Sequence record: PP971806.1
Strand: one strand, 5' to 3'
Source: Escherichia phage GaoY1-9D
Length of the DNA: 50,368 bases
The notes beneath the pieces were generated by a model that was given only the letters and a program-made list of their open reading frames with translations, did no database searches and was not told the origin of the DNA. Positions 715-50,140 of the stretch are shown in pieces. Position 1 is the stretch's first letter. Each line of letters begins with the position of its first letter. The translations under genes and the position numbers were made by a program.

Positions 715-775
715 CACGTTTTGTTAAAAGGGGATTCATGCTGACTGGTATAATCCCCACATCAACCACACGAAA
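712..775 (+). promoter_or_regulatory. intergenic cassette copy (dyad TAGCACGTTTTGTTAAAA, hairpin, TGGTATAAT, box, RBS)
   Basis: dyad 712-729; inverted repeat GGGGATT/AATCCCC 730-758 containing TATAAT 749-754; ACACGAAAGG before ATG 788. Confidence 0.6.
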
Positions 776-1447: not shown

Positions 1448-2065
1448 ATGTCAAAGATTATCATTCTCAACGGTCCAGCTTCGGTTGGTAAAGACACGAT
1501 CGGCAACGAGCTCGCAGCGAATTACAAATGCATCCCGACCAGCTTCAAGCGTCCAATGTTTGAGATTGCAGCATCCATCCTTGGTGCCAGGGCTTTCTCA
1601 AAGTTCATCACCGCATACGACGACCGCGACCAGAAAGAGATGCCTCATGACTTTCTCGGTGGCAAGACCTGCCGTGAGTTCATGATCTGGATTAGCGAAA
1701 CAGTGGTCAAGCCGCTTTTTGGCAATCAGCAGTTCGGCAAATTGATGAGCGAACATATCCAGCTGTGTGATGAAGGCTTTAGCTTCGTTTGCACTGATGG
1801 CGGATTCCCAGATGAAGTAATCAGGCTCGTTGAAGATGGTCACGATGTTACCCTGGTCCGCCTGTTCATGGATGGGAAGACGTTCGAGGGAGATAGTCGT
1901 GATTATATCCGCATCAAGGAATCGCATTTCCCTGACTATAAGAAATATAACGAGAATGACGTTCATCTTGTGAATGGCGATATTGACGGCGGCGTCATGG
2001 CGGTTGTTCGCGCCTGCGGTATCCGTCCTGCAATCGACGAGTGGGCCGACGATATTCCTTGGTAA
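1448..2065 (+). CDS. P-loop kinase (polynucleotide or nucleotide kinase-like)
   Basis: Walker A GPASVGKDT near N-terminus; RBS AGGA upstream. Confidence 0.55.
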   Translation: MSKIIILNGPASVGKDTIGNELAANYKCIPTSFKRPMFEIAASILGARAFSKFITAYDDRDQKEMPHDFLGGKTCREFMIWISETVVKPLFGNQQFGKLMSEHIQLCDEGFSFVCTDGGFPDEVIRLVEDGHDVTLVRLFMDGKTFEGDSRDYIRIKESHFPDYKKYNENDVHLVNGDIDGGVMAVVRACGIRPAIDEWADDIPW

Positions 2066-2066
2066 A

Positions 2067-2130
2067 TAGCACTAATTGCTAAACCCGCCCCGGCGGGTTT
2101 TGTTATAGTTAGTTCACACCAAACGAGAGG
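2067..2130 (+). promoter_or_regulatory. intergenic cassette copy with terminator-like hairpin
   Basis: TAGCACTAATTGCTAAA 2067-2083; CCCGCC/GGCGGG hairpin then TTTTGTTATAGT; AAACGAGAGG before ATG 2139. Confidence 0.55.
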
Positions 2131-2299: not shown

Positions 2300-2698
2300 A
2301 TGAAGTTACGTTGCATAAAGATTAATCCATGCGCATCAGAATGGTTTAAGAAAGACTTTCAGGTTGGCAAGGTGTATGAGGCAGAGCGCGGTCGTGATAT
2401 CTACACAGGCACAGTAGATGTTATTGGTGGTAATGAAGGTATTGCTTGGTGCACTATACAGAAAGGAAGCAAATTCAACCTAAGCATCGGAAGTGGACCT
2501 GCTGTCACGTTCGAGCTGGTAAAGGGTCCGCGCCGCCTGGTTGTAACTGAAAAACGTGTAACTGGCGTATTGAACGACAAGCGAAAATTCCGCCGCATGT
2601 GCCGCCAGTACGGTAAGCTTCGATTCACTGAGCCTGGGATGTTCTGCTTTATCGCATGGCGAGCAATGAAAAAGAATGCACGAAATTACCAGCGATAG
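2300..2698 (+). CDS. hypothetical protein
   Basis: ORF with RBS GAAGGGGAA; stop TAG is first triplet of next cassette. Confidence 0.5.
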   Translation: MKLRCIKINPCASEWFKKDFQVGKVYEAERGRDIYTGTVDVIGGNEGIAWCTIQKGSKFNLSIGSGPAVTFELVKGPRRLVVTEKRVTGVLNDKRKFRRMCRQYGKLRFTEPGMFCFIAWRAMKKNARNYQR

Positions 2699-2760
2699 CA
2701 CTTTTTGTTAAAACTCAGAATCGGGGTGGCTGTATAGTTACCCCATCGAAACGAACGAGG
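2696..2760 (+). promoter_or_regulatory. intergenic cassette copy
   Basis: TAGCACTTTTTGTTAAAA 2696-2713; hairpin GGGGT/ACCCC with TGTATAGT; CATCGAAACGAACGAGG. Confidence 0.6.
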
Positions 2761-25421: not shown

Positions 25422-25505
25422 TTTGTTTTCCTTAGTAAGTATTTTTCGTTTCGATGAAGTAACTATACATGCAACTATCGTCGGAGTCTTTAACTATTCG
25501 TGCTA
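25422..25505 (-). promoter_or_regulatory. intergenic cassette copy (minus orientation)
   Basis: reverse complement reads TAGCACGAATAGTTAAA ... GTATAGTTA ... CATCGAAACGAAAAAT. Confidence 0.5.
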
Positions 25506-25938
25506 TTGTATACACGTAACCAATGTAACTCGATGTATACAATCCCATCCGCGAGAAATGATATACGCACTGTTACGCCAATTTACGCAATGGTTACATT
25601 AAAATATCTATATATATCAACCTTTTACTCTTATTATTATTATTATATATATTACTGTGTATATCATGTAACTACTTATATAGAGTGTTCCGCTTATAAA
25701 TTTCTAATATGTACATTTATACAGTATTTAATCACAAGCATACCAATGCACCATCCGCCAGAAGCGATATACACGATATACACGCTATTTACATCTAGCT
25801 ATAGCTGGGCATGATAGCCATTTTATGTAACTAGCGCCAATGTATACACATGATTACAGATACATACACGTAACCACTTGACTAATGCAACCAGTCGCGT
25901 ATAGTTAGCCACATCAACAACGAACGAGGATTAAAGAG
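25506..25938. repeat. AT-rich non-coding region with GTATACAC-type iterons and (TTA)n/(TA)n tract
   Basis: repeated TGTATACAC and GATATACAC; ACACGTAACCA twice; about 100 bp related to 46005..46100. Confidence 0.6.
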
Positions 25939-26979
25939 ATGACTAAGCCACTGTTTCAATATTTCACTTCAGAAGAAATGAGCAACGATTTCTATCACAG
26001 CAAAGATGAATGGACTGCTGAGTATGTCTCTGGTTCATCGTTGAGCAAGATTCACAGCTCATGCCCTGCGGCGTGGAAGTTTGAAATGAACTCTACGACT
26101 AAAGCTCTTGTTTTCGGCACTCAGTCACACACAAACTTTGAGAGCAAGACGCTGTTTGAACGTCAGTATCGCCGAGCACCGAAAGAAAGCGAGATTAAGA
26201 ACGTAATCACAAGCCAGGCAGCATTGGCAACGAAATTAAAATCATTTGGCCTGACTGGTACAAGCGGAAAGCAATATCCAGAACTGATCAAAATGATGGT
26301 TGATTGTGGCGAAGAACTCAACGTGATGTGGCTGATTGATATGATCGCACAGTGTCAGGCATGGGCCGATGGCGTGGAACTGGTTAAGGCGGAAGACTAC
26401 GATGCTTGCGTAAGTATGCGTCAGGTTCTTGAAATGATTCCTGAGCATAATGCTTGCATGAACAGTGAGACTGCATTCCGTGAGTATTCTTTATTCGGCG
26501 TGATTTGCGGTGTAAAAGTCAAGGTTCGTCTTGACCACGTTGACATCATTAAAGATCCAGAAGCAATACGCCGCATGGGTTACGATCCTGAGGTTCACCC
26601 TGAAATTGTCGTCATCACTGATTACAAAACGACAATGATCGCTAACCCGACAGAGTTCCCGCGCCTGGCTTTCAACCTTGGCTATTATCTCAAGATGGCA
26701 TTGCAGCGTGACCTGTTCGTCAAGTGCTTTGAAGAAACGCGTCCAGTTGTTGTGCGCTTGCTGGCCCAGGAGAAGAAAGAGCCTTACTTGCCTATGGCGT
26801 ACCGGATGAGCAGCGATCAGCTTAAGATTGGTCGCGCTCAGTATATGAGTGTTATTCACACGTTCTCAATGTGCGAGGCGAATGATGTGTGGCCTTCATA
26901 CAGCAACGGCGAACCTGAGATTGAGCTTGAAACTCCTGATTGGATTAAAAAGCAGTTCAAGCACATTCTGGAAGCGTAG
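25939..26979 (+). CDS. exonuclease of PD-(D/E)xK type (recombination exonuclease, putative)
   Basis: LDHVD ... VVITDYKTT motif arrangement; upstream of annealing protein and SSB. Confidence 0.5.
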   Translation: MTKPLFQYFTSEEMSNDFYHSKDEWTAEYVSGSSLSKIHSSCPAAWKFEMNSTTKALVFGTQSHTNFESKTLFERQYRRAPKESEIKNVITSQAALATKLKSFGLTGTSGKQYPELIKMMVDCGEELNVMWLIDMIAQCQAWADGVELVKAEDYDACVSMRQVLEMIPEHNACMNSETAFREYSLFGVICGVKVKVRLDHVDIIKDPEAIRRMGYDPEVHPEIVVITDYKTTMIANPTEFPRLAFNLGYYLKMALQRDLFVKCFEETRPVVVRLLAQEKKEPYLPMAYRMSSDQLKIGRAQYMSVIHTFSMCEANDVWPSYSNGEPEIELETPDWIKKQFKHILEA

Positions 26980-27050
26980 CACTTTTTGCTAAACACTAAC
27001 GCGGTGATTTGCTATAATCACCGTAAATCAAACGAAGTAAACAAAGGTAT
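26977..27050 (+). promoter_or_regulatory. intergenic cassette copy
   Basis: TAGCACTTTTTGCTAAA; hairpin CGGTGAT/ATCACCG with TGCTATAAT; AATCAAACGAAG. Confidence 0.6.
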
Positions 27051-28202: not shown

Positions 28203-28230
28203 TAAAAGGCCCCTTTCGGGGCCTTTTTTA
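28203..28230. terminator. bidirectional intrinsic terminator
   Basis: hairpin AGGCCCC-TTTC-GGGGCCT with flanking A and T runs. Confidence 0.65.
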
Positions 28231-30381
28231 TGAAACTCTAATGTTAAGGTTGCTTCCGTTATTTCTGTAGAATCCACCAACTGGAACGCCGACAGACGCC
28301 GCGGCGGAATCGCTATCAGCATCCCTGATTATTAACCCCCTATATTCAGAGCCAGCGTCATATGAATATCCATTTATTGTTGCCCCTCCAGATAATGAGT
28401 TAGTCTTAAGTGATAGACTACTATCTGTAACCTTGCTACCTCCGTAAGCGTAAATACCAAATTGCGAGCTGCACTTTCTCATGTCAACACCGTTAGCAAC
28501 AACAAGCCCATCAGGGTTGTTCCCAACTTTTAATCCGGCTAGCTTAGCTCCGTAGGTCGGTTCTGTTGTTGCATTCGGGTTAATTTGCTCATCAGACGCA
28601 ACTATTGCCCCACCCGTGATTGTTAAGTCAATATTTCCATAAGTTCCATCTATGGTTACAGCCCCGCCATCGCTTGACGTATATCCACCTCCAGTGATAA
28701 TGCAGTTATCTATGAAATTGTTAGTACCAGAGCCTTCGCCATCCCCAATGAAAACAACAGCGCATCTTTTAGCAACATCAAGCCACATGTTTGAGAATCT
28801 TGAGTACGACGTCCCGATGCACTGAACATGTATCCTTGTGTACTCTATCTTCCCACCAATAAAGGCAACACCAGAATGCGGACCCAACCTTATACCAACA
28901 CCAACAGTTTCCGACAATGAAGCAGGATCACTTCCTGAGTGGTATCCAATATCATTAATGTACATGCTTGTAATTGTTGAATCGCTTATGTTATTTGATG
29001 AATAGAACCCCGCTTCAACACACCCTGTAATCTGATCTCCGTAAGACCTGTGTAGACCTGCATTATCTGTCCTCAAACCAATCCTTGCGGCTCTAAACGT
29101 GCAGTTATTCCTTAAATGGTTATTGAATGACTCGGAGTTTGAGTTGTCGCTAAATCTCCTTCCGTATTCAATACAACAAACATCAGCACCCCTTGCGTCT
29201 ACGTCAATATTTGATATAGCTGTCTGCCTACAACCCCTAAAATCAAGAATCGGGTCAAGATATCCAAGAGAGTGATCACCAGCGAGCGCTATGGTTCCAT
29301 TCATATTTAAACCGCTATCAGAATAAGCCCACGAGGATAAAGGCCCAACAATTGACTTGCTACTACGCATCAAAATTGGTTTTTTAACGTAGTAATAATC
29401 ACCAATGTAGCACTCATTTACATATGGAGATGAAAGGCACAGGTTTATTGCTACCGAGTTATCAACGCTTGAATTGTGTGGGATTGCACCAAAAAACCTA
29501 ACATCAACAGGTCCTTTAAAAATACCACCAGAAAAACCATCCCTAAAAATCTGCGAAGATTCTCCAACGTTAATTACCAACCCGCCATCAGGTGTCATAT
29601 CTCTTGATTTTTCAACAGAAAAAATACCACCACCGCTATCATTGGTAGAAGAAATATTTTTAATAAAGATATAGTCACCATCATTTACATTACTATCAAG
29701 AACATCTCTTACAAAATTGAATGTCTTGAATTTTTGCTCTGATTTTGAGTAAACATCAAGGTTCTGCCTTGCAAGTTGCTTATCTGTTAAGTCCGATAGT
29801 GCCAAATCTTTTCTCAATAAGTTTTGCGTATCAAGTGATGCGGCATAATCAGCTGCCTCCTGAGCAGATGCTGCGGCAGAATCTTTGTCATTACTTGCCG
29901 AGATTGCGCTTGCGGCTGCGGCATTCTTATCAGATGATACTTGAGCAGCATCTGTGGCAACCTGGCTTCCAATAGTAACAACATCACTATGCTGCGAGTT
30001 AACCTGAGAAACCTTTGTTTCAAAGTCATTTGCATCGAAGTTGTTGAAAGCATCAACAGCATCGGCAACCTCTGTTTCGCGTGACTGATAGTAACGCAAA
30101 GTCTCGGCAACACCCTGAGCCAAACCCTGAACTGTAATCCCATCGTGCGCAAGGATCGCGTAACCTGTACCTGCTGGTGCTGTTTCACCATTTGGATTAT
30201 ATACAGATAAAGACGTATCACTAGCGATCTCAGTGATAGTGTAAATCTGCACCGGATCAGTTTTAAATACGATTGTGGCACCAACTCGAATTAGCGTCAG
30301 CGGCATAGCCCATTGAGTTCCAGCGCCAGTAACTTGACCGTTTTCTGTAAGGCTGGCTGTGCCAGTATCATAAATTGACAT
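28228..30381 (-). CDS. lateral tail fiber / tailspike-like protein
   Basis: about 718 aa; Ala/Ser-rich linker; Gly/Asn-rich repeat-like C-terminal region; start ATG 30381 with RBS AGGAG. Confidence 0.65.
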   Translation of the reverse strand: MSIYDTGTASLTENGQVTGAGTQWAMPLTLIRVGATIVFKTDPVQIYTITEIASDTSLSVYNPNGETAPAGTGYAILAHDGITVQGLAQGVAETLRYYQSRETEVADAVDAFNNFDANDFETKVSQVNSQHSDVVTIGSQVATDAAQVSSDKNAAAASAISASNDKDSAAASAQEAADYAASLDTQNLLRKDLALSDLTDKQLARQNLDVYSKSEQKFKTFNFVRDVLDSNVNDGDYIFIKNISSTNDSGGGIFSVEKSRDMTPDGGLVINVGESSQIFRDGFSGGIFKGPVDVRFFGAIPHNSSVDNSVAINLCLSSPYVNECYIGDYYYVKKPILMRSSKSIVGPLSSWAYSDSGLNMNGTIALAGDHSLGYLDPILDFRGCRQTAISNIDVDARGADVCCIEYGRRFSDNSNSESFNNHLRNNCTFRAARIGLRTDNAGLHRSYGDQITGCVEAGFYSSNNISDSTITSMYINDIGYHSGSDPASLSETVGVGIRLGPHSGVAFIGGKIEYTRIHVQCIGTSYSRFSNMWLDVAKRCAVVFIGDGEGSGTNNFIDNCIITGGGYTSSDGGAVTIDGTYGNIDLTITGGAIVASDEQINPNATTEPTYGAKLAGLKVGNNPDGLVVANGVDMRKCSSQFGIYAYGGSKVTDSSLSLKTNSLSGGATINGYSYDAGSEYRGLIIRDADSDSAAASVGVPVGGFYRNNGSNLNIRVS

Positions 30382-30405
30382 AATTTCAACTCCTATTTTT
30401 ATTGA

Positions 30406-31468: not shown

Positions 31469-31472
31469 ATTG

Positions 31473-31946
31473 TCATTCTTTAGCTTTTCGTGCTGCTTCG
31501 TTTGCCGCTTTAATTTTTCGCCATGATCGACACTCTGGTTTAGTGGCTAGTTCAGCCTCAGTGACGACGCGCAGCATGTGACGCTTTTTGCAACGCAGCG
31601 TCAGCGGCTTACCGTTCCCATCGAATTGCAGATCAGGTCGGCAGAATGTAGCGCGGAATCCTTCGCCAGTTCGCTTATATCGGTTGTGCGCCAGTTGAGC
31701 GCCGCGAGCCGACATCATTCCTCGTTTAAACCATTCCTCAACGGCCTGGCGACTAACCTTCAGTTGTTTTGCGATATTGGCCTTCGTTCCGTAGAAGTCG
31801 AGAACCATTTCCAGTCGCGCCCGAAGCCCGGCCTTTACTTCATCTTTTAAAACGTAGTAACCTGAGGGTCGTTTCCGTTGCTTTTTGTCTTCAGTTCGGA
31901 CTGTTCCGTTGTTGCCGTTAATGGTTCGCTTGTCGACTGCATTCAT
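31473..31946 (-). CDS. HTH DNA-binding protein (putative transcriptional regulator)
   Basis: helix-turn-helix-like segment TKANIAKQLKVSRQAVEEWFKRG; basic protein. Confidence 0.5.
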   Translation of the reverse strand: MNAVDKRTINGNNGTVRTEDKKQRKRPSGYYVLKDEVKAGLRARLEMVLDFYGTKANIAKQLKVSRQAVEEWFKRGMMSARGAQLAHNRYKRTGEGFRATFCRPDLQFDGNGKPLTLRCKKRHMLRVVTEAELATKPECRSWRKIKAANEAARKAKE

Positions 31947-31959
31947 CTCATCACCTCAA

Positions 31960-32038
31960 TAGCACTTTTTGTTAAACATTGGTTTCGAAGGTTGTTATTA
32001 TAACGTCAATCGAACGAACATGAAAGGCATTTAATACT
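31960..32038 (+). promoter_or_regulatory. intergenic cassette copy in divergent region
   Basis: TAGCACTTTTTGTTAAA; TGTTATTATAAC; AATCGAACGAAC; RBS GAAAGG. Confidence 0.6.
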
Positions 32039-34141: not shown

Positions 34142-34228
34142 TTACAGATTTGTTTTATGTGTGTAAAAGTGATTCTCTTAGATGGAAGGCTAAATCAAGT
34201 AAAAAACAAAAGAACAACATAGGCGAAG

Positions 34229-34639
34229 TTGCCGGGAAGCCCAAACAAAAATGGATACATAAGCGTAATGGTGATGGGTGAAAGGATTATGGCTCATCAC
34301 ATAGCCTGGGAAATTCACCACGGCTTTAGTGTTCCTTATGGTTTTGAAATAGATCACATCGACCATAACCCAAAAAACCAAGCCAAAGATAACTTGAGAT
34401 TGGTAAAAAGATATGATAACGCAAAAAATCTTTCAATGTCAAAATCAAATACTAGCGGAGTAACTGGAGTTTCACTATTCAAGAAAACTGGAAAGTGGAA
34501 AGCATCAATAAAGCATAACGGAAAGACGTATCACTTAGGTTATTTTAATGATATAGAAGAAGCAAGGGCGGCAAGAACCGAGGCGAATATTAAATATAAC
34601 TTCCACAAAAATCATGGAGATAAAAATGTCAATAATTGA
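34229..34639 (+). CDS. HNH homing endonuclease with AP2-like DNA-binding domain
   Basis: HHIAWEIHHG ... EIDHIDHNPKN; C-terminal SGVTGV ... YHLGYF; AT-rich; exact start uncertain. Confidence 0.7.
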   Translation: MPGSPNKNGYISVMVMGERIMAHHIAWEIHHGFSVPYGFEIDHIDHNPKNQAKDNLRLVKRYDNAKNLSMSKSNTSGVTGVSLFKKTGKWKASIKHNGKTYHLGYFNDIEEARAARTEANIKYNFHKNHGDKNVNN

Positions 34640-35057
34640 TAAAGGCGATTACCTGGAGTATTACACTCCAGACAAATCGGATACATGGACCGAGAACAAG
34701 CACCAGGTCGATTGCGTGACCTGGACGAAGGTTAGGCATTGTGATTTGCTGTTCTGGCACGCCGTTAATGAGAACAAGAAGCACATCCACACGGCGTTAA
34801 AGGATGCTCAGAGCGGGTTATTGAAGGGGGTTAGTGACTTTGTATTCCTTATAGGTCCGTTCGGTAAATATCCTTTCGGAGCCATAGAATTAAAGCGCGT
34901 CAATAAGAGCGGAAAAGGAAAGGCATCACCAGTCAGTAAGGAGCAGAAAGATTTCCTCCGGCGCGTCCGTGAGCGTGGCGGATTCGCGGCGGTGGCATAC
35001 GGCCAAGAGGAGTATAAGAAAGCTGTTCATGACATGCTGAATAGCACGAATTGCTAA
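34626..35057 (+). CDS. VRR-NUC-like nuclease (putative)
   Basis: GVSDFVFLIGPFGKYPFGAIELK (D ... ELK); protein ends MLNSTNC, read through cassette dyad. Confidence 0.45.
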   Translation: MSIIDKGDYLEYYTPDKSDTWTENKHQVDCVTWTKVRHCDLLFWHAVNENKKHIHTALKDAQSGLLKGVSDFVFLIGPFGKYPFGAIELKRVNKSGKGKASPVSKEQKDFLRRVRERGGFAAVAYGQEEYKKAVHDMLNSTNC

Positions 35058-35115
35058 AGAGGAATCAGTGAGGTGGTGTATTATCACCTCATCGAAACGA
35101 AGTAACCAACCAAGG
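35042..35115 (+). promoter_or_regulatory. intergenic cassette copy
   Basis: TAGCACGAATTGCTAAA; hairpin GAGGTG/CACCTC with TATTAT; CATCGAAACGAAG. Confidence 0.6.
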
Positions 35116-35123
35116 AAATCAAA

Positions 35124-35396
35124 ATGAAAAAGTCAATCATCGCTCTACTGGCAGTTGTGGCAATGGCAGGTTGTGCAGAAGATACCAAGTTTTACGATTG
35201 CGGTAAGGAATCATTCACAGTAACCAAGTCACAGATTGTTTCAGACAAGGGCGTTGTTATTGAGCGTGAAGGCGATCACTATGAACTGCAAACTTTCTTG
35301 GGGAAGGCGGTTTACAACGTGACTGAAAGTCAAGTCAAGGTTAGCGTAGGTGGGTTCGTTGCCGTAAATAACTGTAAAGTTACCGAGGTTAAATAA
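35124..35396 (+). CDS. small lipoprotein
   Basis: signal peptide with lipobox AMAGC; adjacent to dam start. Confidence 0.55.
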   Translation: MKKSIIALLAVVAMAGCAEDTKFYDCGKESFTVTKSQIVSDKGVVIEREGDHYELQTFLGKAVYNVTESQVKVSVGGFVAVNNCKVTEVK

Positions 35397-35397
35397 G

Positions 35398-36126
35398 ATG
35401 AACGACTCAAATGACAAAGATACCCATGACGCATTCGTTAGCTTTGAACAGATCGAGCGTGAAAACTTTGTTACCAATGCGCTTGTTCCTGGGAACGGTC
35501 ATTACCAGGCGGTCAAGCCTGATACCTTCTATCGGGTAACTGGAAACCGATACGCAGGAAGCAAGACGCCTGACGCTGTGCGTGACCTTTGGGCAACTGA
35601 CAGAGAAGTGATCTCATGGATGGAGTCGCGTTATGGTAAGTACGACATTGACGCCGCCGCCAGCGCTAATAATGCTGTTTGCGAAAAGTTCTACAGCGAA
35701 CAAGTGAACTGCCTCAAAATCTGGTGGGGTAGCAATAAGCACATCTGGCTGAATCCTCCGTACTCACATCCAGATCCTTTCGTGAAGAAAGCGATTGAGC
35801 AAATGGAACACAACAATCAGATTGATATGTTGCTTCCTGGTGATAACTCAACGGCGTGGTTTGCCGAAGCACGACGCAACGCGGCTGAAATCATCTGGAT
35901 TGAGGCGGACATCACAGAGATTGACAGTCAGGAATATTGCCGGACGGGGCGGTTGGCATTCATCTCTGGACTGACCGGAAAGCCTGTCGATGGCAACAAT
36001 AAAGGTAGCGTGATTTTTGTCATGCGAAAACTGCAAGAAGGCGAGACGCAGAAAACGACATACGTTAGCGTTGCCGATATTTGTCCTGGCGTAAGCCGTA
36101 AGAAACCACGTAAACGGAGTGTTTAA
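35398..36126 (+). CDS. dam: DNA N6-adenine methyltransferase
   Basis: catalytic NPPY motif (WLNPPYSHP). Confidence 0.8.
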   Translation: MNDSNDKDTHDAFVSFEQIERENFVTNALVPGNGHYQAVKPDTFYRVTGNRYAGSKTPDAVRDLWATDREVISWMESRYGKYDIDAAASANNAVCEKFYSEQVNCLKIWWGSNKHIWLNPPYSHPDPFVKKAIEQMEHNNQIDMLLPGDNSTAWFAEARRNAAEIIWIEADITEIDSQEYCRTGRLAFISGLTGKPVDGNNKGSVIFVMRKLQEGETQKTTYVSVADICPGVSRKKPRKRSV

Positions 36127-36127
36127 G

Positions 36128-36355
36128 ATGAGCAGTGTACAAATCAATTTAACCGACAAAGGTCAATATCTTTTATTCCGCGCGATCGTTTGTGAGGTGT
36201 TAACGAAAGCAGGCTTTAAGGGTGACGCTTGGGAGTTCTCGGATCTGGATATGTCATTCGAAGAAGTGCAGGATCAGCCGATTAACACATGGGCTAAAGC
36301 GATACGAAAGGATATGGAAGACTATAAACGCGATTGCCCCGAAGATTTCGCATAA
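36128..36355 (+). CDS. hypothetical protein
   Basis: ATG 36128 in frame of track ORF 36119..36355. Confidence 0.45.
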   Translation: MSSVQINLTDKGQYLLFRAIVCEVLTKAGFKGDAWEFSDLDMSFEEVQDQPINTWAKAIRKDMEDYKRDCPEDFA

Positions 36356-36420
36356 TAGCACGAATTGCTAAACATACCCGCCGCCGCGCGGGTATACTTC
36401 TTTCATACCAACGAGACGAG
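36356..36420 (+). promoter_or_regulatory. intergenic cassette copy
   Basis: TAGCACGAATTGCTAAA; hairpin ATACCCGC/GCGGGTAT; CAACGAGACGAGG. Confidence 0.55.
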
Positions 36421-36428
36421 GAATCACC

Positions 36429-37142: not shown

Positions 37143-37225
37143 TGCGCTGCTTAATTGCTGTATTATTACCGCCGCTAATTGGTTTTATTATCATCTACTT
37201 ACTAACACGATAAGGATTTACAAAA

Positions 37226-38356
37226 ATGGCTATTCAAAAAATCACTGACGAACAATTCATTGCTGAGCGCGAAGCTGGTAAAACACTCCGCCAGATTGCC
37301 CAGGAATACGGGATGAACATCCGCACCGTAGAGCAACGCTCAAGCAACCTGGCCAAGAAAGGTCACGGACACGGTAACAAAGCTGTTGCTAAATATGTTC
37401 CTGATGGATTCGCTGTAAAAGGCACGTCAACCATGATTGATGCGGAAGGTAACGAGAAGATCCGGTGGGTTAAGACCTCAATTGATAATGATCGCCTTGA
37501 GGTTCTGATGGAGCAGGCTCGTGAGGCATTCTGCTCAGAGTTGCCGAAGGCAGATGTGGTAATCCATTCAGGCAATGAGGTCAATTCTGAATTAATGACT
37601 CTTTACCCTATTTTCGATATCCATATTGGCATGATGGCACATCGCCATGAATCTGGTGAGAATTATGACACTAACACGGCAGAGAAATTAATGGGGTCAT
37701 ATTTTGACCACGCAATCTCTGTATCACCAGCCTCAGAGAAAGCTGTGATTTTAGTTGGTGGAGACTTCCTCCACTCTGATGGGTTGGAGGCGGTAACTCC
37801 AGCAAGCGGACACTGCCTTGATCAGGATAGCCGATATGCTAAGCTAGTTTATGTTGCGATTCGCTCAATTCGTGGTGCAGTAGAGAAGATGCTTAAAAAG
37901 CATAAAAATATCGAGATTCAGGTTATAGAAGGAAATCATGACCAAAGTGGAATGATTTGGCTTCGCGCAGCAATTGCTGCATTTTATGAAAACGAGAATC
38001 GCGTGTTTGTTGATACCAGTCCGGCAATCATGCATAAAACAAGATTTGGCTCAACACTACTTGGCTACACGCATGGTCACACCATGAAGAAGGCGGAAGG
38101 GAGATTGGCGGCAATGGCAACTGACTACCGTAAAGACTTTGGCGAATGTGAGTTTGTCTACTGCCACTCCGGCCACTTCCATCATGCAACTGTTACAGAA
38201 TGCACGCTTGGCATTGACGAAGTTCACCCAGCCCTGGCTAGTAAGGACGCATATGCAGCTCGTGGAGGTTGGAGATCATATCGTCAAGCGGCTGCAATCA
38301 TCTATCACAAAGAGTTTGGCGAGGTTGGTCGCCACATTTATCGCCCAGGTATGTAA
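37226..38356 (+). CDS. HTH domain fused to calcineurin-like metallophosphoesterase
   Basis: N-terminal TLRQIAQEYGMNIRTVEQ; motifs DIH, GGDFLHSD, EGNHD, GHTHG, HSGHFHH. Confidence 0.55.
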   Translation: MAIQKITDEQFIAEREAGKTLRQIAQEYGMNIRTVEQRSSNLAKKGHGHGNKAVAKYVPDGFAVKGTSTMIDAEGNEKIRWVKTSIDNDRLEVLMEQAREAFCSELPKADVVIHSGNEVNSELMTLYPIFDIHIGMMAHRHESGENYDTNTAEKLMGSYFDHAISVSPASEKAVILVGGDFLHSDGLEAVTPASGHCLDQDSRYAKLVYVAIRSIRGAVEKMLKKHKNIEIQVIEGNHDQSGMIWLRAAIAAFYENENRVFVDTSPAIMHKTRFGSTLLGYTHGHTMKKAEGRLAAMATDYRKDFGECEFVYCHSGHFHHATVTECTLGIDEVHPALASKDAYAARGGWRSYRQAAAIIYHKEFGEVGRHIYRPGM

Positions 38357-38357
38357 G

Positions 38358-38420
38358 TAGCACTTTTTGCCTAACATGTAGCGCCGGAAGGCGCTATATT
38401 CATATCTCACTCACAGAGGA
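38358..38420 (+). promoter_or_regulatory. intergenic cassette copy
   Basis: TAGCACTTTTTGCCTAA; hairpin TAGCGCC/GGCGCTA; GCTATATT. Confidence 0.5.
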
Positions 38421-42544: not shown

Positions 42545-42607
42545 TGTTTCGTTTCGATGGAGTAATAGTATCGCATCCTTGCGATTGTGTTTTAACAAAA
42601 AGTGCCA
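42545..42607 (-). promoter_or_regulatory. intergenic cassette copy (minus orientation)
   Basis: minus strand TGGCACTTTTTGTTAAAA; hairpin ATCGCA/TGCGAT; CATCGAAACGAAAC. Confidence 0.55.
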
Positions 42608-42855
42608 TTTGCTAGTTTGACATATCAATCCAAGAAAATACAAACTAACTCTATTCTAAATCAAACGGTATTGACCTATTGTAAAAGTACATATAACAAT
42701 CATAGTTATGTTTTGGTTGCACCGTCTCAGATAGACACGCCTTTACAGAATCGCGGTCAGATGGATCTACATGCTCAGCCTTAAGTAATGCTAAGATCTG
42801 GTTATAGCGCACCATTAGTTGTACAATTTGCTCCTGCCTCATATTATCTACCCCC

Positions 42856-43094: not shown

Positions 43095-43156
43095 ATTTCG
43101 TTTCGATGGGATGAATATACAGGAAAAGCCCCGAAGGGCTTTAGCAATTCGTGCTA
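43095..43156 (-). promoter_or_regulatory. intergenic cassette copy (minus orientation)
   Basis: minus strand TAGCACGAATTGCTAAA; hairpin AGCCCTTCGGGGCT; TGTATATT; CATCGAAACGAAAT. Confidence 0.6.
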
Positions 43157-43302
43157 TTTCGTGCTTTCTCTATCGCATTTAGCATTGTTTCATGGCTCTC
43201 GAGCAAATCCTCGTTAAACCAATCACCGCATGGCCATCCCTTTCCGCTATAGGCACTAATGACTTCCAGATCGAAGTAGTTTATCTCAGATGGCAGGAGC
43301 AT
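43141..43302 (-). CDS. small hypothetical protein (53 aa) ending NSTNC, translated through the cassette dyad
   Basis: ATG 43302 overlaps upstream stop; RBS GAGGTG; stop TAA inside dyad. Confidence 0.3.
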   Translation of the reverse strand: MLLPSEINYFDLEVISAYSGKGWPCGDWFNEDLLESHETMLNAIEKARNSTNC

Positions 43303-43541
43303 CACTTCACCTCATCAAAAGTTGCAACCCCAGGGATGAACATCCCAACCTTCCAGCCTGCGATAGCAACCCAGCCAGAATCGTGCTTGTGCGGTCGCTC
43401 AGCGCCATTAATCACCCATTCGTTCGGGATTGTCTTACCTTTAATGATTAGAGGCTCAGCGTCGTATACAGAGCCTTTTACGAACGGTGTCAAAACCTTC
43501 TTGTCGGTGCTGGTTATTACGTTAGTGCATCGAATCTTCAT
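43302..43541 (-). CDS. hypothetical protein
   Basis: internal ATG 43541 with RBS GGAG; track ORF 43302..43559. Confidence 0.45.
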   Translation of the reverse strand: MKIRCTNVITSTDKKVLTPFVKGSVYDAEPLIIKGKTIPNEWVINGAERPHKHDSGWVAIAGWKVGMFIPGVATFDEVK

Positions 43542-44389: not shown

Positions 44390-44452
44390 TACTTCGTTTC
44401 GATGAAATGATTATGCCTCAATCCGTGAGGCTTAGTTTAGCAATTAGTGCTA
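44390..44452 (-). promoter_or_regulatory. intergenic cassette copy (minus orientation)
   Basis: minus strand TAGCACTAATTGCTAAA; hairpin GCCTCACGGATTGAGGC; CATCGAAACGAAG. Confidence 0.6.
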
Positions 44453-44453
44453 T

Positions 44454-44780
44454 TTATGCGATGTCGAACTCTGCCGCGTACGCTTCTTTGATACCCGATT
44501 CACGCATGGTGCGCTTGCTGATTTTGCGCGGGTGACGGTACTGAGCGTTAGGCTTAATCCACCAGAAGCAAGCAGTTTCACGAACGATTTCATAAGTGCT
44601 GTAACGAGTGAAAGTATCGCGCTCTGCGTCAGGTTGGGATACACAAGTCAGGTTCTTAACTTCCGGCTTGATTTCTTCCCAAACGAATGAATCCATACCG
44701 TTAACCTTGCAAGCTACCATCACATATTCAACGCCATTTTCGATTTTGATGATGTCGTTACCGCGATTTTCGTATTTCAT
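44454..44780 (-). CDS. hypothetical protein
   Basis: ORF with cassette upstream. Confidence 0.5.
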   Translation of the reverse strand: MKYENRGNDIIKIENGVEYVMVACKVNGMDSFVWEEIKPEVKNLTCVSQPDAERDTFTRYSTYEIVRETACFWWIKPNAQYRHPRKISKRTMRESGIKEAYAAEFDIA

Positions 44781-44789
44781 TTGCTTTCT

Positions 44790-44857
44790 CTATGTGTCTC
44801 GTTTCGATTAAGTAATAATACCCCATCGTGAGATCTGGCGTTTAGCAATTCGTGCTA
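44790..44857 (-). promoter_or_regulatory. intergenic cassette copy (minus orientation)
   Basis: minus strand TAGCACGAATTGCTAAA; TATTATTACTTAATCGAAACGAGAC. Confidence 0.6.
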
Positions 44858-44859
44858 TT

Positions 44860-45666
44860 TTATATGTCGCTGAAAACTTCACAGCTTTCACTGCAAGATC
44901 CGGTGTCGAATGATTTGGCCCCTCTAACCCTTGAGGCTATCTCATCTCTCGACTGTGGAAACATCTGTATAATGTCACCGATTGAGCGCCTTCCTCTGTA
45001 CATGTCAGATGATGATTCCTTTTTATTGTGCTCACTAATTGTGTCAATGAATAGCTTTGCAAGTTCCGGCTCATCTTTACACGCAAGCGCAATCTTAAGC
45101 TCTGACTTCTTGATGCAGAAAACGCAGTTACCAAGATGCTCATCAATTTCAAGGTCAAATGGCATGTCATGCCAGAAGTCGATAATGTCCTGTTTTTCGA
45201 AATCAGATATGTCAGCAAGGTAACTGAACCCATCGACGGGTTTTAGTCTCTTTGGCTCATCGGCACGAATACCAATCCATCTCTGATAATTACCCTTACC
45301 ATACTTCTCCTCGCAGTACTTCTCGAATGGCTTAGTCTTCATCCTGTTCGTACAGAATGGCCCGCCTTGGTATGGATTTCCGTACTTCCTTAGCATTCTA
45401 ATCCACCCAGTCAGATCATGGTGAATGTCATCGACGCTGACAACTTCGAAAGATGGAGCCCCGCGGAACTTATCGCTGGGCAAACATCTCAGGCAGGTTA
45501 TCGGCCTTGAAAGCATTGATGAGACTTTACGGATAAACTCATATGTCTTCGGATGCTCTGCTCCAGTGTCCATATAAATCACCTCCGCGTCAGGATGAAT
45601 CTTGAGTACCTCAAGTGTCATGTATGCCGAAGTCCTGCCGCCGCTAAAACTAATTACCTGATTCAT
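44860..45666 (-). CDS. PAPS reductase-family PP-loop ATPase
   Basis: PP-loop SFSGGRTSAYM at N-terminus; ATG 45666 with RBS AGGAG. Confidence 0.7.
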   Translation of the reverse strand: MNQVISFSGGRTSAYMTLEVLKIHPDAEVIYMDTGAEHPKTYEFIRKVSSMLSRPITCLRCLPSDKFRGAPSFEVVSVDDIHHDLTGWIRMLRKYGNPYQGGPFCTNRMKTKPFEKYCEEKYGKGNYQRWIGIRADEPKRLKPVDGFSYLADISDFEKQDIIDFWHDMPFDLEIDEHLGNCVFCIKKSELKIALACKDEPELAKLFIDTISEHNKKESSSDMYRGRRSIGDIIQMFPQSRDEIASRVRGAKSFDTGSCSESCEVFSDI

Positions 45667-45744
45667 TTCAACTCCTATTTGTGCGCTAAATAACAACCAG
45701 ATGATAGCAACTAACCCATGAATGGTCATTAGCAAAAAGTGCTA
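45667..45744 (-). promoter_or_regulatory. cassette-like element upstream of PAPS reductase gene
   Basis: minus strand TAGCACTTTTTGCTAAT at 45728-45744. Confidence 0.45.
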
Positions 45745-46373
45745 TTCGTTCGATTTATGGATTGTTGCAGCTATTGCAATGATTCACATGACTATTGCAC
45801 AGATAGCAATATTGCATCTATTGCAATGATGTTTTCTATTGTTGCGAATTGAGCAATGATTCATTGATGGGGGGAATGATGGGGTGATCAAGGATCACCT
45901 GATCGACTGGTAGGATTTTCCCGCCACACGCTTCTAGCGTATACGCGTTATTTATGTTATGCCATGTAGACACACCAGCACTCCGTAGGAATCATGTACG
46001 CATATCACGCTTAATTACGCCATGGTTACATTAAAATATCCTTATATAATAACCATTTATCTATATTATTATTATTAATATATATATATGTAGATAATGT
46101 AGATAGTGGATATGTGATATTGCGATAGTTTTCTATGATATTTTCCTACACCTGTAGGAATATGACGACATTGTAGGAATAAAAGGGCATGTAGGGGCCC
46201 ATTTGCTAAAAATCCTTATCTACAAACTATACGCAGACTTTACATTGAGCTATATCTGGGGCGATTGGTGGAAATATGTAACTAATCAGAAAATTTGCAC
46301 CGATAACACTTGATAACACGTAGATGTGTGATACTATGGAATCATCTTAGCGAAGACCAACCAATCAGGAGTA
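45745..46373. repeat. AT-rich non-coding region with TATTGCAATGAT repeats, GATC-rich palindrome, GTATAC and GTAGGAAT motifs and (TTA)n/(TA)n tract
   Basis: TATTGCAATGAT at about 45772 and 45819; GGTGATCAAGGATCACCTGATC; TGTAGGAAT three times; core related to 25560..25665. Confidence 0.6.
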
Positions 46374-46901
46374 ATGAGTATGTCAGAGCACAAAGAAGCA
46401 GTAAGCCTCGGTGACGTTATCCGCTACATGGCGGAGCAAGCGCTCAAGTCCGAGAACCGCAGCTACCACGTCCCAATCCATCTAATAGCTCGCCAGGTTT
46501 ACGGCCTCACATCTAGTGATATAGGAGGCATAAGTCGTGAGGATCTGGATGTAGGTGGCAAGTACAGTATGGCAAAGCTGAAGGCGTCATATGTCGCCAA
46601 TACGGTAGCCAGGATGCCAGAGATACAGGCGGCAAACGTTCGTGCAAAACTTTCAATTAAGGATGGTGATTTCGGTGATGACGTCGAGGTTCGGTGTGCT
46701 TATCTGTCTTTGGTTGATGGCGCAATCCAGACAGGAAAGCGAGTGAAGGCAAACTGCCAGATTGCAGAGAAGGCTGTGAGCGACTTTAAGGTCAAAATAC
46801 TCAAGCTGATGCCATCCGTGACTAACTTTGAGGGCGATGAGATTACAGGAGCCATCAAGGCAATCAAAATGTACCAGGAAATGATTAGGGAGACGAAATA
46901 A
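46374..46901 (+). CDS. hypothetical protein
   Basis: ATG 46374 with RBS AGGAG; first gene after AT-rich region. Confidence 0.5.
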   Translation: MSMSEHKEAVSLGDVIRYMAEQALKSENRSYHVPIHLIARQVYGLTSSDIGGISREDLDVGGKYSMAKLKASYVANTVARMPEIQAANVRAKLSIKDGDFGDDVEVRCAYLSLVDGAIQTGKRVKANCQIAEKAVSDFKVKILKLMPSVTNFEGDEITGAIKAIKMYQEMIRETK

Positions 46902-47464
46902 TGTGGATGTTTGATTTTAACGAAGAGAAGCTGACAGATGAGCAGATTATGAAGATTGCTACGGAAGATGGGATTCCACCACTACGAGTTGCAATCAATG
47001 CTAACGGATACCGACAGTCACAAAAGTACTGGTGCGAATTAGAAGTTATGCGTCGCGCAAACCTAAATCGTGAACAATGCGTCGTGGTTGAAAAGATCTG
47101 GAAGCAAGCGATAAATGGAAAAGGCGTTGTGGGAGTTCGCTCAACATATGAGGCGATCAGAAAGGTCCAGCCGTTCGTCGAGCGTAATGGAGTAATGAAT
47201 AACCTGATTGACAATATCCTACCATCACTACAGGACGCGGGAATCATTTGCCTTATTGGTGACAAGATATATGCACACCCATACCTGGTGGGCATGTATG
47301 GGAGAGACATCCACAAGTGGTGCGACTCATGGAGATCGGTTGAGCGCAAATCTCATAGCAAATTGCAGGCAAGCTCAGACATGATTCATGGCTATGATGC
47401 CGATGATGTCAGAAAGGCTGTCGAGTTTTATCGGAAAGCTAAATCACTCCTGAACGGTGAATAG
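46901..47464 (+). CDS. hypothetical protein, truncated paralog of the 40342..41925 P-loop protein
   Basis: shares MFDFNE-KL ... PPLRVAINANGYRQSQ and GKGVVGVRS-YEA-RKV-PF ... CLIGDKIY with the 527-aa protein. Confidence 0.55.
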   Translation: MWMFDFNEEKLTDEQIMKIATEDGIPPLRVAINANGYRQSQKYWCELEVMRRANLNREQCVVVEKIWKQAINGKGVVGVRSTYEAIRKVQPFVERNGVMNNLIDNILPSLQDAGIICLIGDKIYAHPYLVGMYGRDIHKWCDSWRSVERKSHSKLQASSDMIHGYDADDVRKAVEFYRKAKSLLNGE

Positions 47465-47525
47465 CACGAATTGCTAAACAATAAATCGGGTAGTCAGCTA
47501 TGATTACCCTATCGACAACAAAGAG
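47462..47525 (+). promoter_or_regulatory. intergenic cassette copy
   Basis: TAGCACGAATTGCTAAA; GGGTA/TACCC around GCTATGAT; TATCGACAACAAAGAGG. Confidence 0.55.
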
Positions 47526-47947: not shown

Positions 47948-48162
47948 GAGACATTCGAGTTAACTCATCATGGAATCAGGAAACAGAAATCTCAGTAATC
48001 AAGGTTCCGTTCGGAAAGATGCGTAAGCGCGTGCACCTGGACCTTTCGCCGGATTCGCAAGTGGATGGCGCTGGCATGACATACACCGCAGAGCAGGCGC
48101 GCGAACTTGCTGCGGCGCTAATTAAGGCAGCTGAGGAAGTGGAGGCGGAAGTCGATGAGTAA
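47944..48162 (+). CDS. small protein, paralog 3 of tandem triplet
   Basis: C-terminal EQARELAAALIKAAEEVEAE. Confidence 0.5.
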   Translation: MRDIRVNSSWNQETEISVIKVPFGKMRKRVHLDLSPDSQVDGAGMTYTAEQARELAAALIKAAEEVEAEVDE

Positions 48163-48355
48163 ATTCAGGATCGCATTGATTGAAACAACAACCGCCTTCG
48201 GTCATCCGGTCAAGTGGTATGCCGTCCAGAAACGGGTGGCCTTGTTCTGGTGGGTGACAGTGGCACATGCAAGCCAGATTGACCAGGCTCGCTACTGGCT
48301 GCATAAGTCCGGCGCACCGCATCGCAAAGAGAATGTGGTGCGAGTGGTAGAATAG
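48155..48355 (+). CDS. hypothetical protein
   Basis: start overlaps previous stop; stop TAG is first triplet of cassette. Confidence 0.45.
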   Translation: MSKFRIALIETTTAFGHPVKWYAVQKRVALFWWVTVAHASQIDQARYWLHKSGAPHRKENVVRVVE

Positions 48356-48420
48356 CACTTTTTGTTAAAACTACCGTGAGTGCACTTGCTATAGTGCACT
48401 CATTGAATCGAAACAACCAA
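48353..48420 (+). promoter_or_regulatory. intergenic cassette copy
   Basis: TAGCACTTTTTGTTAAAA; hairpin GAGTGCAC/GTGCACTC with TGCTATAGT; ATTGAATCGAAACAACC. Confidence 0.6.
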
Positions 48421-48706: not shown

Positions 48707-48925
48707 ATGAACAACGAAGAAATGATTAAGATCCGTATTATCAAGTCTCCGTATCAGGGCGTTGACTCAAGCAAGCTGCCAGTGGTGGCGATGGCCTGGA
48801 AGTTGGTAGGCGATAACGAAGAGCCATTTTACATGGTTGACGCAGATTTCATTCCGGCGCTCAGCAAGAAAGGAATGGCACCAGGCGAATGGCCCTTTGC
48901 AGAGGATGAGGTTGAATTGCTATGA
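48707..48925 (+). CDS. hypothetical protein
   Basis: ORF with RBS AGGAGA. Confidence 0.45.
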   Translation: MNNEEMIKIRIIKSPYQGVDSSKLPVVAMAWKLVGDNEEPFYMVDADFIPALSKKGMAPGEWPFAEDEVELL

Positions 48926-49020
48926 AGTTCAAATTAGTTGACGTGCTGCAATTGCTTCTTGTTGGGTTATCCTGGGTGCTTCTGTTCCTGGTGATTATCT
49001 TTCTGGTAGTGGTTAAATAG
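48922..49020 (+). CDS. small hydrophobic peptide (32 aa)
   Basis: ATGA overlap with previous stop; LLLVGLSWVLLFLVIIFLVVV; stop TAG inside cassette. Confidence 0.3.
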   Translation: MKFKLVDVLQLLLVGLSWVLLFLVIIFLVVVK

Positions 49021-49095
49021 CACGAATTGCTAAACCTTCCGCAAGGCCATTTGATATAGTGGCCTTATTGAAGCAAAACAACCAATCACAGAGGA
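49018..49095 (+). promoter_or_regulatory. intergenic cassette copy
   Basis: TAGCACGAATTGCTAAA; hairpin AAGGCCA/TGGCCTT with TGATATAGT; ATTGAAGCAAAACAACC. Confidence 0.6.
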
Positions 49096-49659: not shown

Positions 49660-49865
49660 TTATGATCCCGTTGAAGCCAATAGTTTTTATGCGTAATGGC
49701 ATTTGGTTTGCGGTAGTTTGTGGAACTGGATACGTCTATTCAAAAACAGCCGGAAGATGGTATAAGGCTTTAAGCCAGGCGATGGTATTTACTAATTTGG
49801 TTACAGCCATCCGAACAGGAACGGCATATCAGGTTAAGGGGTTAAAAAATGCAAGTCTACACTAA
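49656..49865 (+). CDS. hypothetical protein
   Basis: ATG 49656 overlapping previous stop; track ORF 49566..49865. Confidence 0.4.
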   Translation: MIMIPLKPIVFMRNGIWFAVVCGTGYVYSKTAGRWYKALSQAMVFTNLVTAIRTGTAYQVKGLKNASLH

Positions 49866-50067
49866 CAGTAAAGGCATCGAATTTTGTGCGGTCGGAGATG
49901 TTGTCCTGCGCACTGGTAGCGATGTCGGGGTTGTTAAAATCTCACGCATCACACAGGATCAGTTGGTAAAGGGCATCCAGGCTGGAATCTTTACCTATCA
50001 CTCATCGTTGACGGCTGATGATTACATCACACTTGATGCTGCGGTTCGCGTTGGGTTCATCGAATAG
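49849..50067 (+). CDS. hypothetical protein
   Basis: ORF; stop TAG is first triplet of cassette. Confidence 0.45.
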   Translation: MQVYTNSKGIEFCAVGDVVLRTGSDVGVVKISRITQDQLVKGIQAGIFTYHSSLTADDYITLDAAVRVGFIE

Positions 50068-50140
50068 CACTTTTTGTTAAAACTTGCTCGGAGACATTAG
50101 CTATAGTGTCTCCTGTCAAGTGAACACAAATCAACTGAGG
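50065..50140 (+). promoter_or_regulatory. intergenic cassette copy
   Basis: TAGCACTTTTTGTTAAAA; hairpin GGAGACA/TGTCTCC with GCTATAGT; RBS GAGGAA. Confidence 0.6.

Follow-up and report, generated by a model that had tools for sequence, protein, structure and literature searches.

The genome of Escherichia phage GaoY1-9D (sequence record PP971806.1), analysed here as a single stretch of 50,368 nucleotides (hereafter the window), carries at positions 35042-35056 the 15-mer TAGCACGAATTGCTA, a dyad that forms part of a 21-nt repeat in which the plus-strand gene 34614..35057 comes to its end. The product of this gene, with a Pfam VRR_NUC domain over residues 27-131 and homologues in 972 phage records, ends ...HDMLNSTNC. 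A second gene, 43141..43305 on the minus strand (54 aa), matches phrog_4548 over its full length, has homologues in 123 phage records and ends ...EKARNSTNC inside another copy of the repeat. In both genes the dyad is read as AAT AGC ACG AAT TGC TAA (hereafter frame b, in which the T of TAG is a third codon position), as a preliminary description made from the letters alone had noticed, and by their domain, family and homologue matches both open reading frames (ORFs) are real genes. The peptide tail that this description took to be common to them is NSTNC, whereas the longer form MLNSTNC occurs in the VRR-NUC gene alone. The features at the two loci are the following.

35040..35060, plus strand: 21-nt repeat, with the dyad at 35042-35056; frame b supplies NSTNC and the TAA of the VRR-NUC gene 34614..35057.
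35065..35095, plus strand: predicted hairpin (dG -15.0) enclosing the putative -10 box TATTAT at 35079-35084; predicted start at A35091 within CAT.
35090..35126, plus strand: putative leader CATCGAAACGAAGTAA, then ribosome-binding site and ATG 35124 of the gene 35124..35396.
43138..43158, minus strand: 21-nt repeat, with the dyad at 43156-43142, supplying NSTNC and the TAA of the 54-aa gene 43141..43305.
43141-43126, minus strand: predicted hairpin of the same cassette, followed by the putative -10 box TATATT at 43119-43114, a predicted start at ~43107 and ATG 43086.

A megablast search of window positions 30000-50000 against phage records returned the Escherichia phages p111, P817, TH21 and others at 90-92% identity. 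These are Drexlerviridae of the genus Nouzillyvirus, T1-like siphoviruses of ~50 kb, and by this similarity the window is assigned to a T1-like coliphage of the same family and genus. T1 itself belongs to the classic series of seven T phages and is notorious as a contaminant in laboratories.

In the window TAGCACGAATTGCTA has eight exact copies, and with up to three mismatches 18 matches were found against 1.7 expected from shuffled sequences; a wider consensus search recovered about 20 good copies, and the 21-nt consensus aaATAGCACnnnTTGnTAAAA, with up to two mismatches, recovered 19, among which centres of the GAA, TTT and A types are represented. In each of six genomes scanned (the window, T1, TLS, Rtp, p111 and P817) the copies number 19-23. 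A clean dyad of 5+5 nt is limited to the GAA-type copies, those of the TTT type (TAGCACTTTTTGTTA) not being dyadic, and conservation extends to the sequence, with its orientation and asymmetric centre, and not to base pairing; "oriented 21-nt direct repeat" is a better name for the element than "dyad".

The 2024 re-annotation of phage TLS (PMC11447400) reported a 21-nt direct repeat of consensus aaATAGCACnnnTTGnTAAAA in 18 intergenic copies, oriented with transcription, with start codons ~76 nt downstream and with centres of the GAA, TTT and AAA types, and pointed out the same repeat in T1, Rtp and Rogue1. Its authors recognised three ordinary sigma-70 promoters in TLS and no more, and listed the function of the repeat as an open question, with stoperators, enhancer sites or UP elements as guesses (PMC11447400). 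Apart from this paper, the exact 15-mer TAGCACGAATTGCTA was absent from the literature searched, and a pattern scan of IMG/VR gave, among the matches listed, mostly single chance matches together with multi-copy contigs of ~46-53 kb, Rtp included. The element of the window shares with the T1-like repeat its consensus, centre types, orientation, distance to the start codon and number of copies (about 20 per genome), and differs from it in nothing essential; to judge by these shared traits it is the same, already published family, to which the window adds a further member, from Nouzillyvirus. Three features set out below are not in PMC11447400: the -10 box at a constant distance of 22 nt, the hairpin that surrounds this box, and the use of the TAG and TAA of the repeat as stop codons.

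Taking the surroundings of all copies together, we consider it likely that the standard promoter of T1-like phages has the repeat as its upstream half, and that both the overlap of the repeat with gene ends and the NSTNC tail follow from genome compaction. The match to TATAAT was scored at every distance of 10-35 nt after TTGnTA in the 119 copies of the six genomes that lie far enough from a sequence end. Matches of at least 5/6 were found at exactly 22 nt in 75 copies, at 21 nt in 10 and at 23 nt in 6, and in 0-3 copies at each of the other distances, so that a TATAAT-like box stands at 21-23 nt in 91 of the 119 copies. No -35-like hexamer was found 16-19 bp from the -10 box, a spacing of 17 giving a -10 match of at least 5/6 in one of the 119 copies, and because none lies at a usable distance the repeat most likely replaces the -35 hexamer. 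In the same alignment G occupies -14 in at least half of the copies, an extended -10 (TGn) is present in about one third, and "cAt" appears seven nucleotides past the -10 hexamer, CAT being the usual start-site context. With +1 predicted at the A of this CAT, the repeat would extend from -51 to -31 and the centre of the dyad would fall at -42.

Past the predicted start lies an A-rich leader, in many copies CATCGAAACGAA, and the ribosome-binding site and start codon follow at 67-85 nt from the repeat, typically at ~77 (17 window copies, all co-oriented with the downstream gene). Leaders of the form CATCGAAACGAA(G/A)TAA run from the predicted start at 35090-35105 and 2744-2759 and, on the minus strand, at 43108-43093, 44404-44389, 42559-42544 and 25456-25441; they are candidates for an initial transcribed sequence, an element of mRNA stability or translation, or a part of the recognition. 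The same downstream layout accompanies copies in divergent regions where no gene ends (25505, 31960, 45744), and the Vibrio cholerae drexlervirus Vc1 has the same architecture, leader CAACGAAACGAA included. Because of the fixed -10 spacing, the copies free of gene ends and the conservation in Vc1, the element is assigned to the downstream gene and not to the gene that it overlaps. The complete cassette would then consist of the repeat, a variable hairpin spacer, a -10 box 22 nt after TTGnTA, a CAT start, an A-rich leader, a ribosome-binding site and a start codon, and the repeat may act as the docking site of a factor that recruits the host sigma-70 RNA polymerase, in a geometry that would be that of a class II activator site such as the one used by lambda cI at PRM.

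Two conventional promoter types were considered and rejected. TTGnTA is not an ordinary -35 box, the -10 box being absent at 16-19 bp. Promoters of the sigma-54 type have the consensus TGGCAC-N5-TTGCW, with GG-N10-GC and without a -10 TATAAT; the repeat reads TAGCAC-N3-TTGC, with AG in place of GG, AG-N8-GC in a spacing 2 bp short and a TATAAT at 22 nt.

The 40 nt that follow the repeat fold with a mean of -10.8 kcal/mol, compared with -4.3 for shuffles and -5.5 for random genomic 40-mers (Mann-Whitney p = 2e-22), the sequence of the stem varying between copies. In 102 of 119 cassettes (seven genomes) the predicted hairpin reaches -5 kcal/mol or lower, and in 73 of the 102 the stem encloses the -10 hexamer, with its 3' arm ending near +1. 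At least five T within the 8 nt after the stem are found in 15 of the 102 only, and because so few hairpins have a T-run the putative ordinary terminators located in the spacer (2067, 36356, 43156, 31495) are a minority; by this measure the majority of the hairpins do not look like canonical terminators. An RNA hairpin formed by the dyad itself was also considered and rejected, since it would have 5 bp only and is broken in the TTT-type copies, the sequence rather than the pairing being conserved. A scan of the whole window against Rfam at the gathering score gave no matches.

All three reading frames were tabulated at every window copy. The TAG of the repeat is the stop codon of 13..714, 2300..2698, 25939..26979, 46901..47464, 48155..48355, 48922..49020 (an ORF of only 32 aa) and 49849..50067, that is, in the seven cases listed in the preliminary description, which had put their number at nine or more. 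Five further genes, 1448..2065, 36119..36355, 37226..38356, 44454..44780 and 44860..45735, have a TAA of their own 0-2 nt before the TAG, and these stops fall inside the A-rich 5' edge of the repeat. The survey was extended to the 107 cassettes with a -10 box in the six genomes, considering the co-directional ORF upstream: the stop lies at the TAG of the repeat in 44, at the TAA at +13 in 14, 0-2 nt before the TAG in 22 and elsewhere in 5, and in the remaining 22 there is no such ORF. The early proposals that the repeat is a nucleic-acid element tolerant of coding overlap and that it makes gene boundaries exact are both borne out, as 80 of the 85 cassettes with a co-directional ORF have the upstream stop either within the repeat or no more than 2 nt ahead of its TAG. 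The TAG of the repeat accounts for about half of all TAG stops in each genome, and the reading frame without a stop inside the repeat is almost never used.

A comparison of orthologs, which had been suggested as a check, found the repeat at gene ends in related phages, and the NSTNC ending of the VRR-NUC protein confined to one genus. The VRR-NUC products of T1, TLS and Rtp end ...MMK, ...ATK and ...ISK, respectively, the stop being the TAG of the repeat, whereas in six of six Nouzillyvirus genomes the DNA has one A fewer before the TAG and the protein ends ...DMLNSTNC. In Vibrio phage Vc1 the TAG is changed to AAG and the ORF crosses the entire cassette, with a gain of 25 residues; the annotated ORF (29381-29773) spans the repeat, the hairpin, the -10-like CAAAAT and the leader, and terminates at a TAA directly adjoining the dam start codon ATG, so that this 25-residue tail is encoded by promoter DNA. 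Endings of the NSTNC type are found on at least six unrelated proteins. Homologues of a Cro-like regulator encoded in the window vary widely in the length of their C-termini, yet they end ...STNC, ...STNS or ...STDC, all frame-b readings of the repeat, and in the clade of the window the regulator ends AARKAKE, the third frame of the degenerate copy CAGCACGAAAAGCTAAAG. Since the tail of VRR-NUC is restricted to one genus it is incidental, and as the DNA element dictates the endings, NSTNC is best regarded, on these alignments, as a by-product of that element and not as a functional peptide. The overlap itself is attributed to genome compaction: intergenic space may have shrunk to promoter and leader, with the preceding gene pressed up to or into the repeat, and because the repeat happens to carry TAG in one frame and TAA in a second, overlaps that cost few or no residues would survive, a stop at the TAG adding none and a stop at the TAA adding (N/D)ST(N/D)(C/S).

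The placement at stop codons had initially been taken to suggest insertion or selection at stops, or a function coupled to them. A signal acting at the level of RNA or translation, such as 3'-end formation or termination-linked processing of the upstream message, would agree with the position of the upstream stop in 80 of 85 cassettes, with the share of TAG stops contributed by the repeat and with a stable hairpin 3-25 nt downstream. However, the same architecture is found where no gene ends, three reading frames are tolerated, the asymmetric oriented sequence is conserved while its pairing is not (the TTT-type copies break the dyad), no Rfam family matches, and the fixed 22 nt to the -10 box and the nearly constant ~77 nt to the start codon that follows link the element with the gene downstream. 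We find this function unsupported and very improbable, and any role in 3'-end formation belongs to the variable hairpin and not to the dyad. A more substantial alternative is that the repeats serve primarily as joints for the recombination of mobile gene cassettes, as in the promoter early stem-loop (PeSL) elements of T4-type phages; exact gene ends at the repeat would then come from homologous exchange of modules between repeats, and stops in two frames would end any incoming gene. The window was compared by blastn with p111 and P817, and then with TH21, TH30 and TH27 (five Nouzillyvirus genomes), and 10 of 83 breakpoint clusters fall within 5 nt of a dyad, compared with 0.8 expected under a uniform model (p = 7e-9). 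Homology ends at 47463 in the TAG of the copy at 47462, alignment blocks overlap by the dyad alone at 44437-44458 and 49016-49034, and the segment between the dyads at 44452 and 45744 is replaced in P817. An extra gene of p111 is flanked by two repeats, the junction in the window joining the left flank of the first to the right flank of the second, and the crossover falls inside CATAAATAGCAC. The window also encodes an exonuclease VIII and an Erf-type annealing protein, and recombination between PeSLs, which have the same layout, is documented (PMC2839356). Against this, the enrichment is weak when other gene ends serve as the null (a breakpoint at 6 of 10 gene ends with a repeat and at 18 of 68 without; p = 0.06), many breakpoints reflect the insertion of homing endonucleases or divergence internal to genes, and the fixed -10 spacing is left unexplained. 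Exchange of modules through the repeats does occur, and the repeats may also serve as short homologies where gene modules are gained or lost; as the main cause of exact gene boundaries it cannot be shown, and a primarily recombinational role, although quite conceivable, is to our judgement the less probable choice. It is compatible with the promoter reading and not an alternative to it.

With respect to the protein that reads the repeat, the candidate on the phage side is the 157-aa product of 31473..31946 on the minus strand (PHROG 2856, "transcriptional regulator"), homologous to T1 gp23, Rtp52 and TLS gp58. It counts in its favour that the window, T1, TLS and Rtp all have a repeat of opposite orientation 12-14 nt ahead of the start codon of its gene, and that its homologues come almost only from contigs of ~50 kb. 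The invariant residues of the family form two clusters: one is an N-terminal arm predicted to be disordered (DKRTxNGNNGTxRxxDxxxRK), the other a C-terminal motif, FCRPDLxFDxNGK, that has two conserved cysteines. The recognition helix of the helix-turn-helix varies, which suggests that the conserved function of the regulator lies outside canonical base reading; a comparison of its sequence with PDB gave no match. The repeats might instead be operators or sites of the "stoperator" type, where a repressor such as this Cro-like protein would block or insulate transcription. At about 90 of the 119 sites, however, the repeat lies at -51 to -31, outside the core from -10 to +1, which is a poor position for repression and the classic one for activation. 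Since, in addition, the promoters lack a -35 box of their own, the phages are virulent and the recognition helix of the regulator varies, such a role is improbable. A conserved host reader is favoured because the repeat is nearly invariant and this type of promoter precedes nearly all transcription units, likely first-expressed ones included, and the repeat is near-identical in Escherichia and Vibrio phages, the regulator being only 45% identical between them. That this reader is RNA polymerase, through the C-terminal domain of alpha or through sigma region 4 on a displaced TTGnTA, or else Lrp, is possible, if on balance unlikely. The extended -10 of about one third of the copies would suit the polymerase, while the repeat is not A/T-rich, unlike an UP element, and a 22-bp spacer is incompatible with simultaneous sigma-70 contacts to -35 and -10. 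Compared with the E. coli Lrp consensus yAGhAwATTwTdCTr, as quoted in PMC5554404, the four main variants agree in 11-13 of 15 positions, a score of 12 being reached by 0.09% of the window 15-mers. The arms fit this consensus perfectly; the GAA-type centre and the invariant C at position 6 (TAGCAC) misfit its A/T-rich centre, and the match emerged after comparison with many consensus sequences, so that Lrp is a lead only, at the level of a predicted site.

Several points weigh against the promoter reading. Among predicted DNA-binding proteins just one, of the Cro-like kind, is conserved, and it has a variable recognition helix although the repeat hardly changes between Escherichia and Vibrio phages; a fold search gave only generic matches to helix-turn-helix proteins of the Cro/cI/XRE kind, too unspecific to name the reader of the repeat. 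The U-tract is lacking from most hairpins, whose terminator role is therefore tentative. No mapped transcription start for T1-like phages was found in the literature searched, and for this reason we infer the -10 box, the +1 and the promoter role from sequence. We know of no sigma-70 promoter that works with its -10 box separated by 22 bp from a -35-like TTGnTA. If each promoter needed an activator made by the phage, the first transcription after infection is unexplained. Finally, the counts were taken over related genomes and are not independent events.

Homing endonucleases account for additional differences among these genomes. Relative to p111 and P817 the window has an insertion of ~490 nt at 34148-34638, between the helicase and VRR-NUC genes, where 34229..34639 encodes a homing endonuclease with HNH_3 and AP2 domains, and p111 has homing-endonuclease insertions at the equivalents of window positions ~3500, 6856 and 31430.

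The remaining copies of the repeat in the window, with their predicted downstream features, are the following.

710..730, plus strand: repeat whose TAG (712-714) stops 13..714; putative -10 box TATAAT at 749-754; next start codon 788.
2065..2085, plus strand: repeat, the TAA of gene 1448..2065 lying 1 nt before the TAG; putative -10 box TATAGT at 2104-2109; terminator-like hairpin with a T-run in the spacer.
2694..2714, plus strand: repeat whose TAG stops 2300..2698; putative -10 box TATAGT at 2733-2738.
25487..25507, minus strand: repeat in a divergent region, upstream gene absent; putative -10 box TATAGT at 25467-25462; start codon 25421.
26975..26995, plus strand: repeat whose TAG stops the exonuclease-like gene 25939..26979; putative -10 box TATAAT at 27013-27018, at a spacing of 21.
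31477..31497, minus strand: degenerate copy CAGCACGAAAAGCTA, in which frame c gives the C-terminus of the regulator, ...AARKAKE; predicted hairpin 31466-31441 with a T-run; putative -10 box CATAAT; next start codon 31420.
31958..31978, plus strand: repeat before the helicase gene, which starts at 32039; the divergent Cro-like gene, 31473..31946 on the minus strand, has its start codon 14 nt away, with the repeat on the upstream side.
36354..36374, plus strand: repeat, the TAA of gene 36119..36355 abutting the TAG; putative -10 box TATACT at 36393-36398.
38356..38376, plus strand: variant repeat (TAGCACTTTTTGCCT), gene 37226..38356 ending 1 nt before it; putative -10 box TATATT at 38395-38400.
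42589..42609, minus strand: variant repeat (TGGCAC...); putative -10 box TACTAT at 42570-42565; ATG 42528.
44434..44454, minus strand: repeat, gene 44454..44780 ending 1 nt before the TAG; homology breakpoint with respect to p111 and P817.
44839..44859, minus strand: repeat, gene 44860..45735 ending 2 nt before the TAG; putative -10 box TATTAT at 44820-44815.
45726..45746, minus strand: repeat at the edge of a large non-coding region, with a PAPS-reductase-like gene downstream (start ~45666); homology breakpoint with respect to P817.
47460..47480, plus strand: repeat whose TAG stops 46901..47464; p111 homology ends exactly here.
48351..48371, plus strand: repeat whose TAG stops 48155..48355; putative -10 box TATAGT at 48390-48395.
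49016..49036, plus strand: repeat whose TAG stops the 32-aa ORF 48922..49020; P817 alignment blocks overlap exactly over the dyad.
50063..50083, plus strand: repeat whose TAG stops 49849..50067; putative -10 box TATAGT at 50102-50107.

Three further sites concern other uses of the sequence. At 10769-10800 on the plus strand a reversed copy, TTTAACAAAAAATGCTAT (10791-10777, minus strand), fills the 16-nt spacer of a canonical promoter with an extended -10, TTGACC-N16-TGcTATTAT, just upstream of the major capsid gene (start 10846) and followed by a hairpin. This arrangement is kept in p111, T1, TLS and Vibrio phage Vc1; P817 has it too, with a -35 hexamer (TTGCGC) that is less good. Whichever factor binds the repeat would sit on this late capsid promoter. 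At 30406-30420 an exact dyad in the "wrong" orientation lies between a minus-strand TATACT (30432-30427) and the start (~30382) of a large tail-fibre-like gene, 28228..30382 on the minus strand. It is downstream of the likely -10 box of that gene, its own strand has no -10 box at 22 nt, and related phages carry it, with TTTAGCAC, at the same place. An operator-type use of the same site is possible. In the region 31990-32010 the putative -10 box of the helicase gene (TATTAT, plus strand, 31996-32001) overlaps a perfect minus-strand TATAAT (32003-31998); transcription of the divergent regulator gene could begin from this second box and pass the repeat in the 5' leader, and the back-to-back pair could act as a switch.

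A non-coding stretch of ~620 nt separates divergent transcription units at 45750-46370. It contains about six iteron-like repeats (CTATTGCAATGA and variants) at 45768-45850, repeated TGTAGGAAT motifs at 45985 and 46155-46185 and a pure A/T run at 46040-46095, and its start is also present at the end of the Rtp record. This stretch is probably a replication origin or a packaging region.

The fixed 22-nt phasing, the CAT and the leader turn what was an open question into a directly testable promoter model, from which, if true, about 18 start sites are predicted in this genome. We may hypothesize further, with a little less than even confidence, that nearly all transcription in T1-like phages is driven by a distinct class of promoter, in which a -10 box in the loop of a hairpin is combined with a 21-nt element at -42 that stands in for the -35. 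The element would be read by a factor conserved between the phages of hosts as far apart as Escherichia and Vibrio, for which the invariant, disordered N-terminal arm of the regulator (DKRTxNGNNGTxR) or a host protein such as Lrp are candidates; the reversed copy in the major-capsid promoter would act as a switch, and the repeats would double as recombination joints. For annotation, the cassette accounts for the NSTNC, STNS, STDC and ARKAKE endings of unrelated proteins and for about half of the TAG stops being one motif, and it locates gene boundaries and module junctions.

Class II activator promoters offer a parallel for the position of the repeat: OR2, bound by lambda cI at PRM, is centred at -42, the sites of CRP and FNR at -41.5 and those of Mu Mor and C at -43.5. 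With the predicted +1, the cassette likewise has a partly dyadic site at about -42 that abuts the place of the -35, together with a good -10 box and no -35. In contrast to these sites, the repeat is strictly oriented and has a conserved asymmetric centre and conserved flanks, which is unusual for the site of a symmetric dimer. The stoperators of mycobacteriophage L5 are also many short, asymmetric intergenic sites, all oriented with transcription, but they are repressor sites of a temperate phage with no fixed relation to a -10 box, whereas T1-like phages are virulent and their repeat is phased with the -10. The system that comes closest is the PeSL of T4-type phages (PMC2839356, PMC4122927), a cassette that extends from the upstream stop codon, in an A/T-rich stretch, to the ribosome-binding site and start codon. 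Within it lies an early sigma-70 promoter, whose stem-loop is placed between the two boxes or covers the -10, and recombination between PeSLs shuffles modules (PMC2839356). The cassette of the window likewise begins at the upstream stop and ends at a ribosome-binding site and start codon, has a predicted stable stem-loop between the boxes or over the -10 (102 of 119 cassettes, 73 of them enclosing the -10), and occurs in many copies among small early genes. Individual copies also lie at junctions of insertion, deletion and replacement, with an enrichment that is strong under a uniform model and weak against other gene ends. The two differ in that PeSLs have a canonical -35 at normal spacing, where the T1-like cassette has none and its 21-nt element lies 5 bp further upstream; they show no sequence relationship and belong to different phage families, the T1-like phages being siphoviruses of the Drexlerviridae, and the promoter and terminator activities of PeSLs have been measured, while the T1-like cassette is known from its sequence. 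Because it lacks the canonical -35, the cassette is not classed as a PeSL, although by analogy it would work in a PeSL-like manner.

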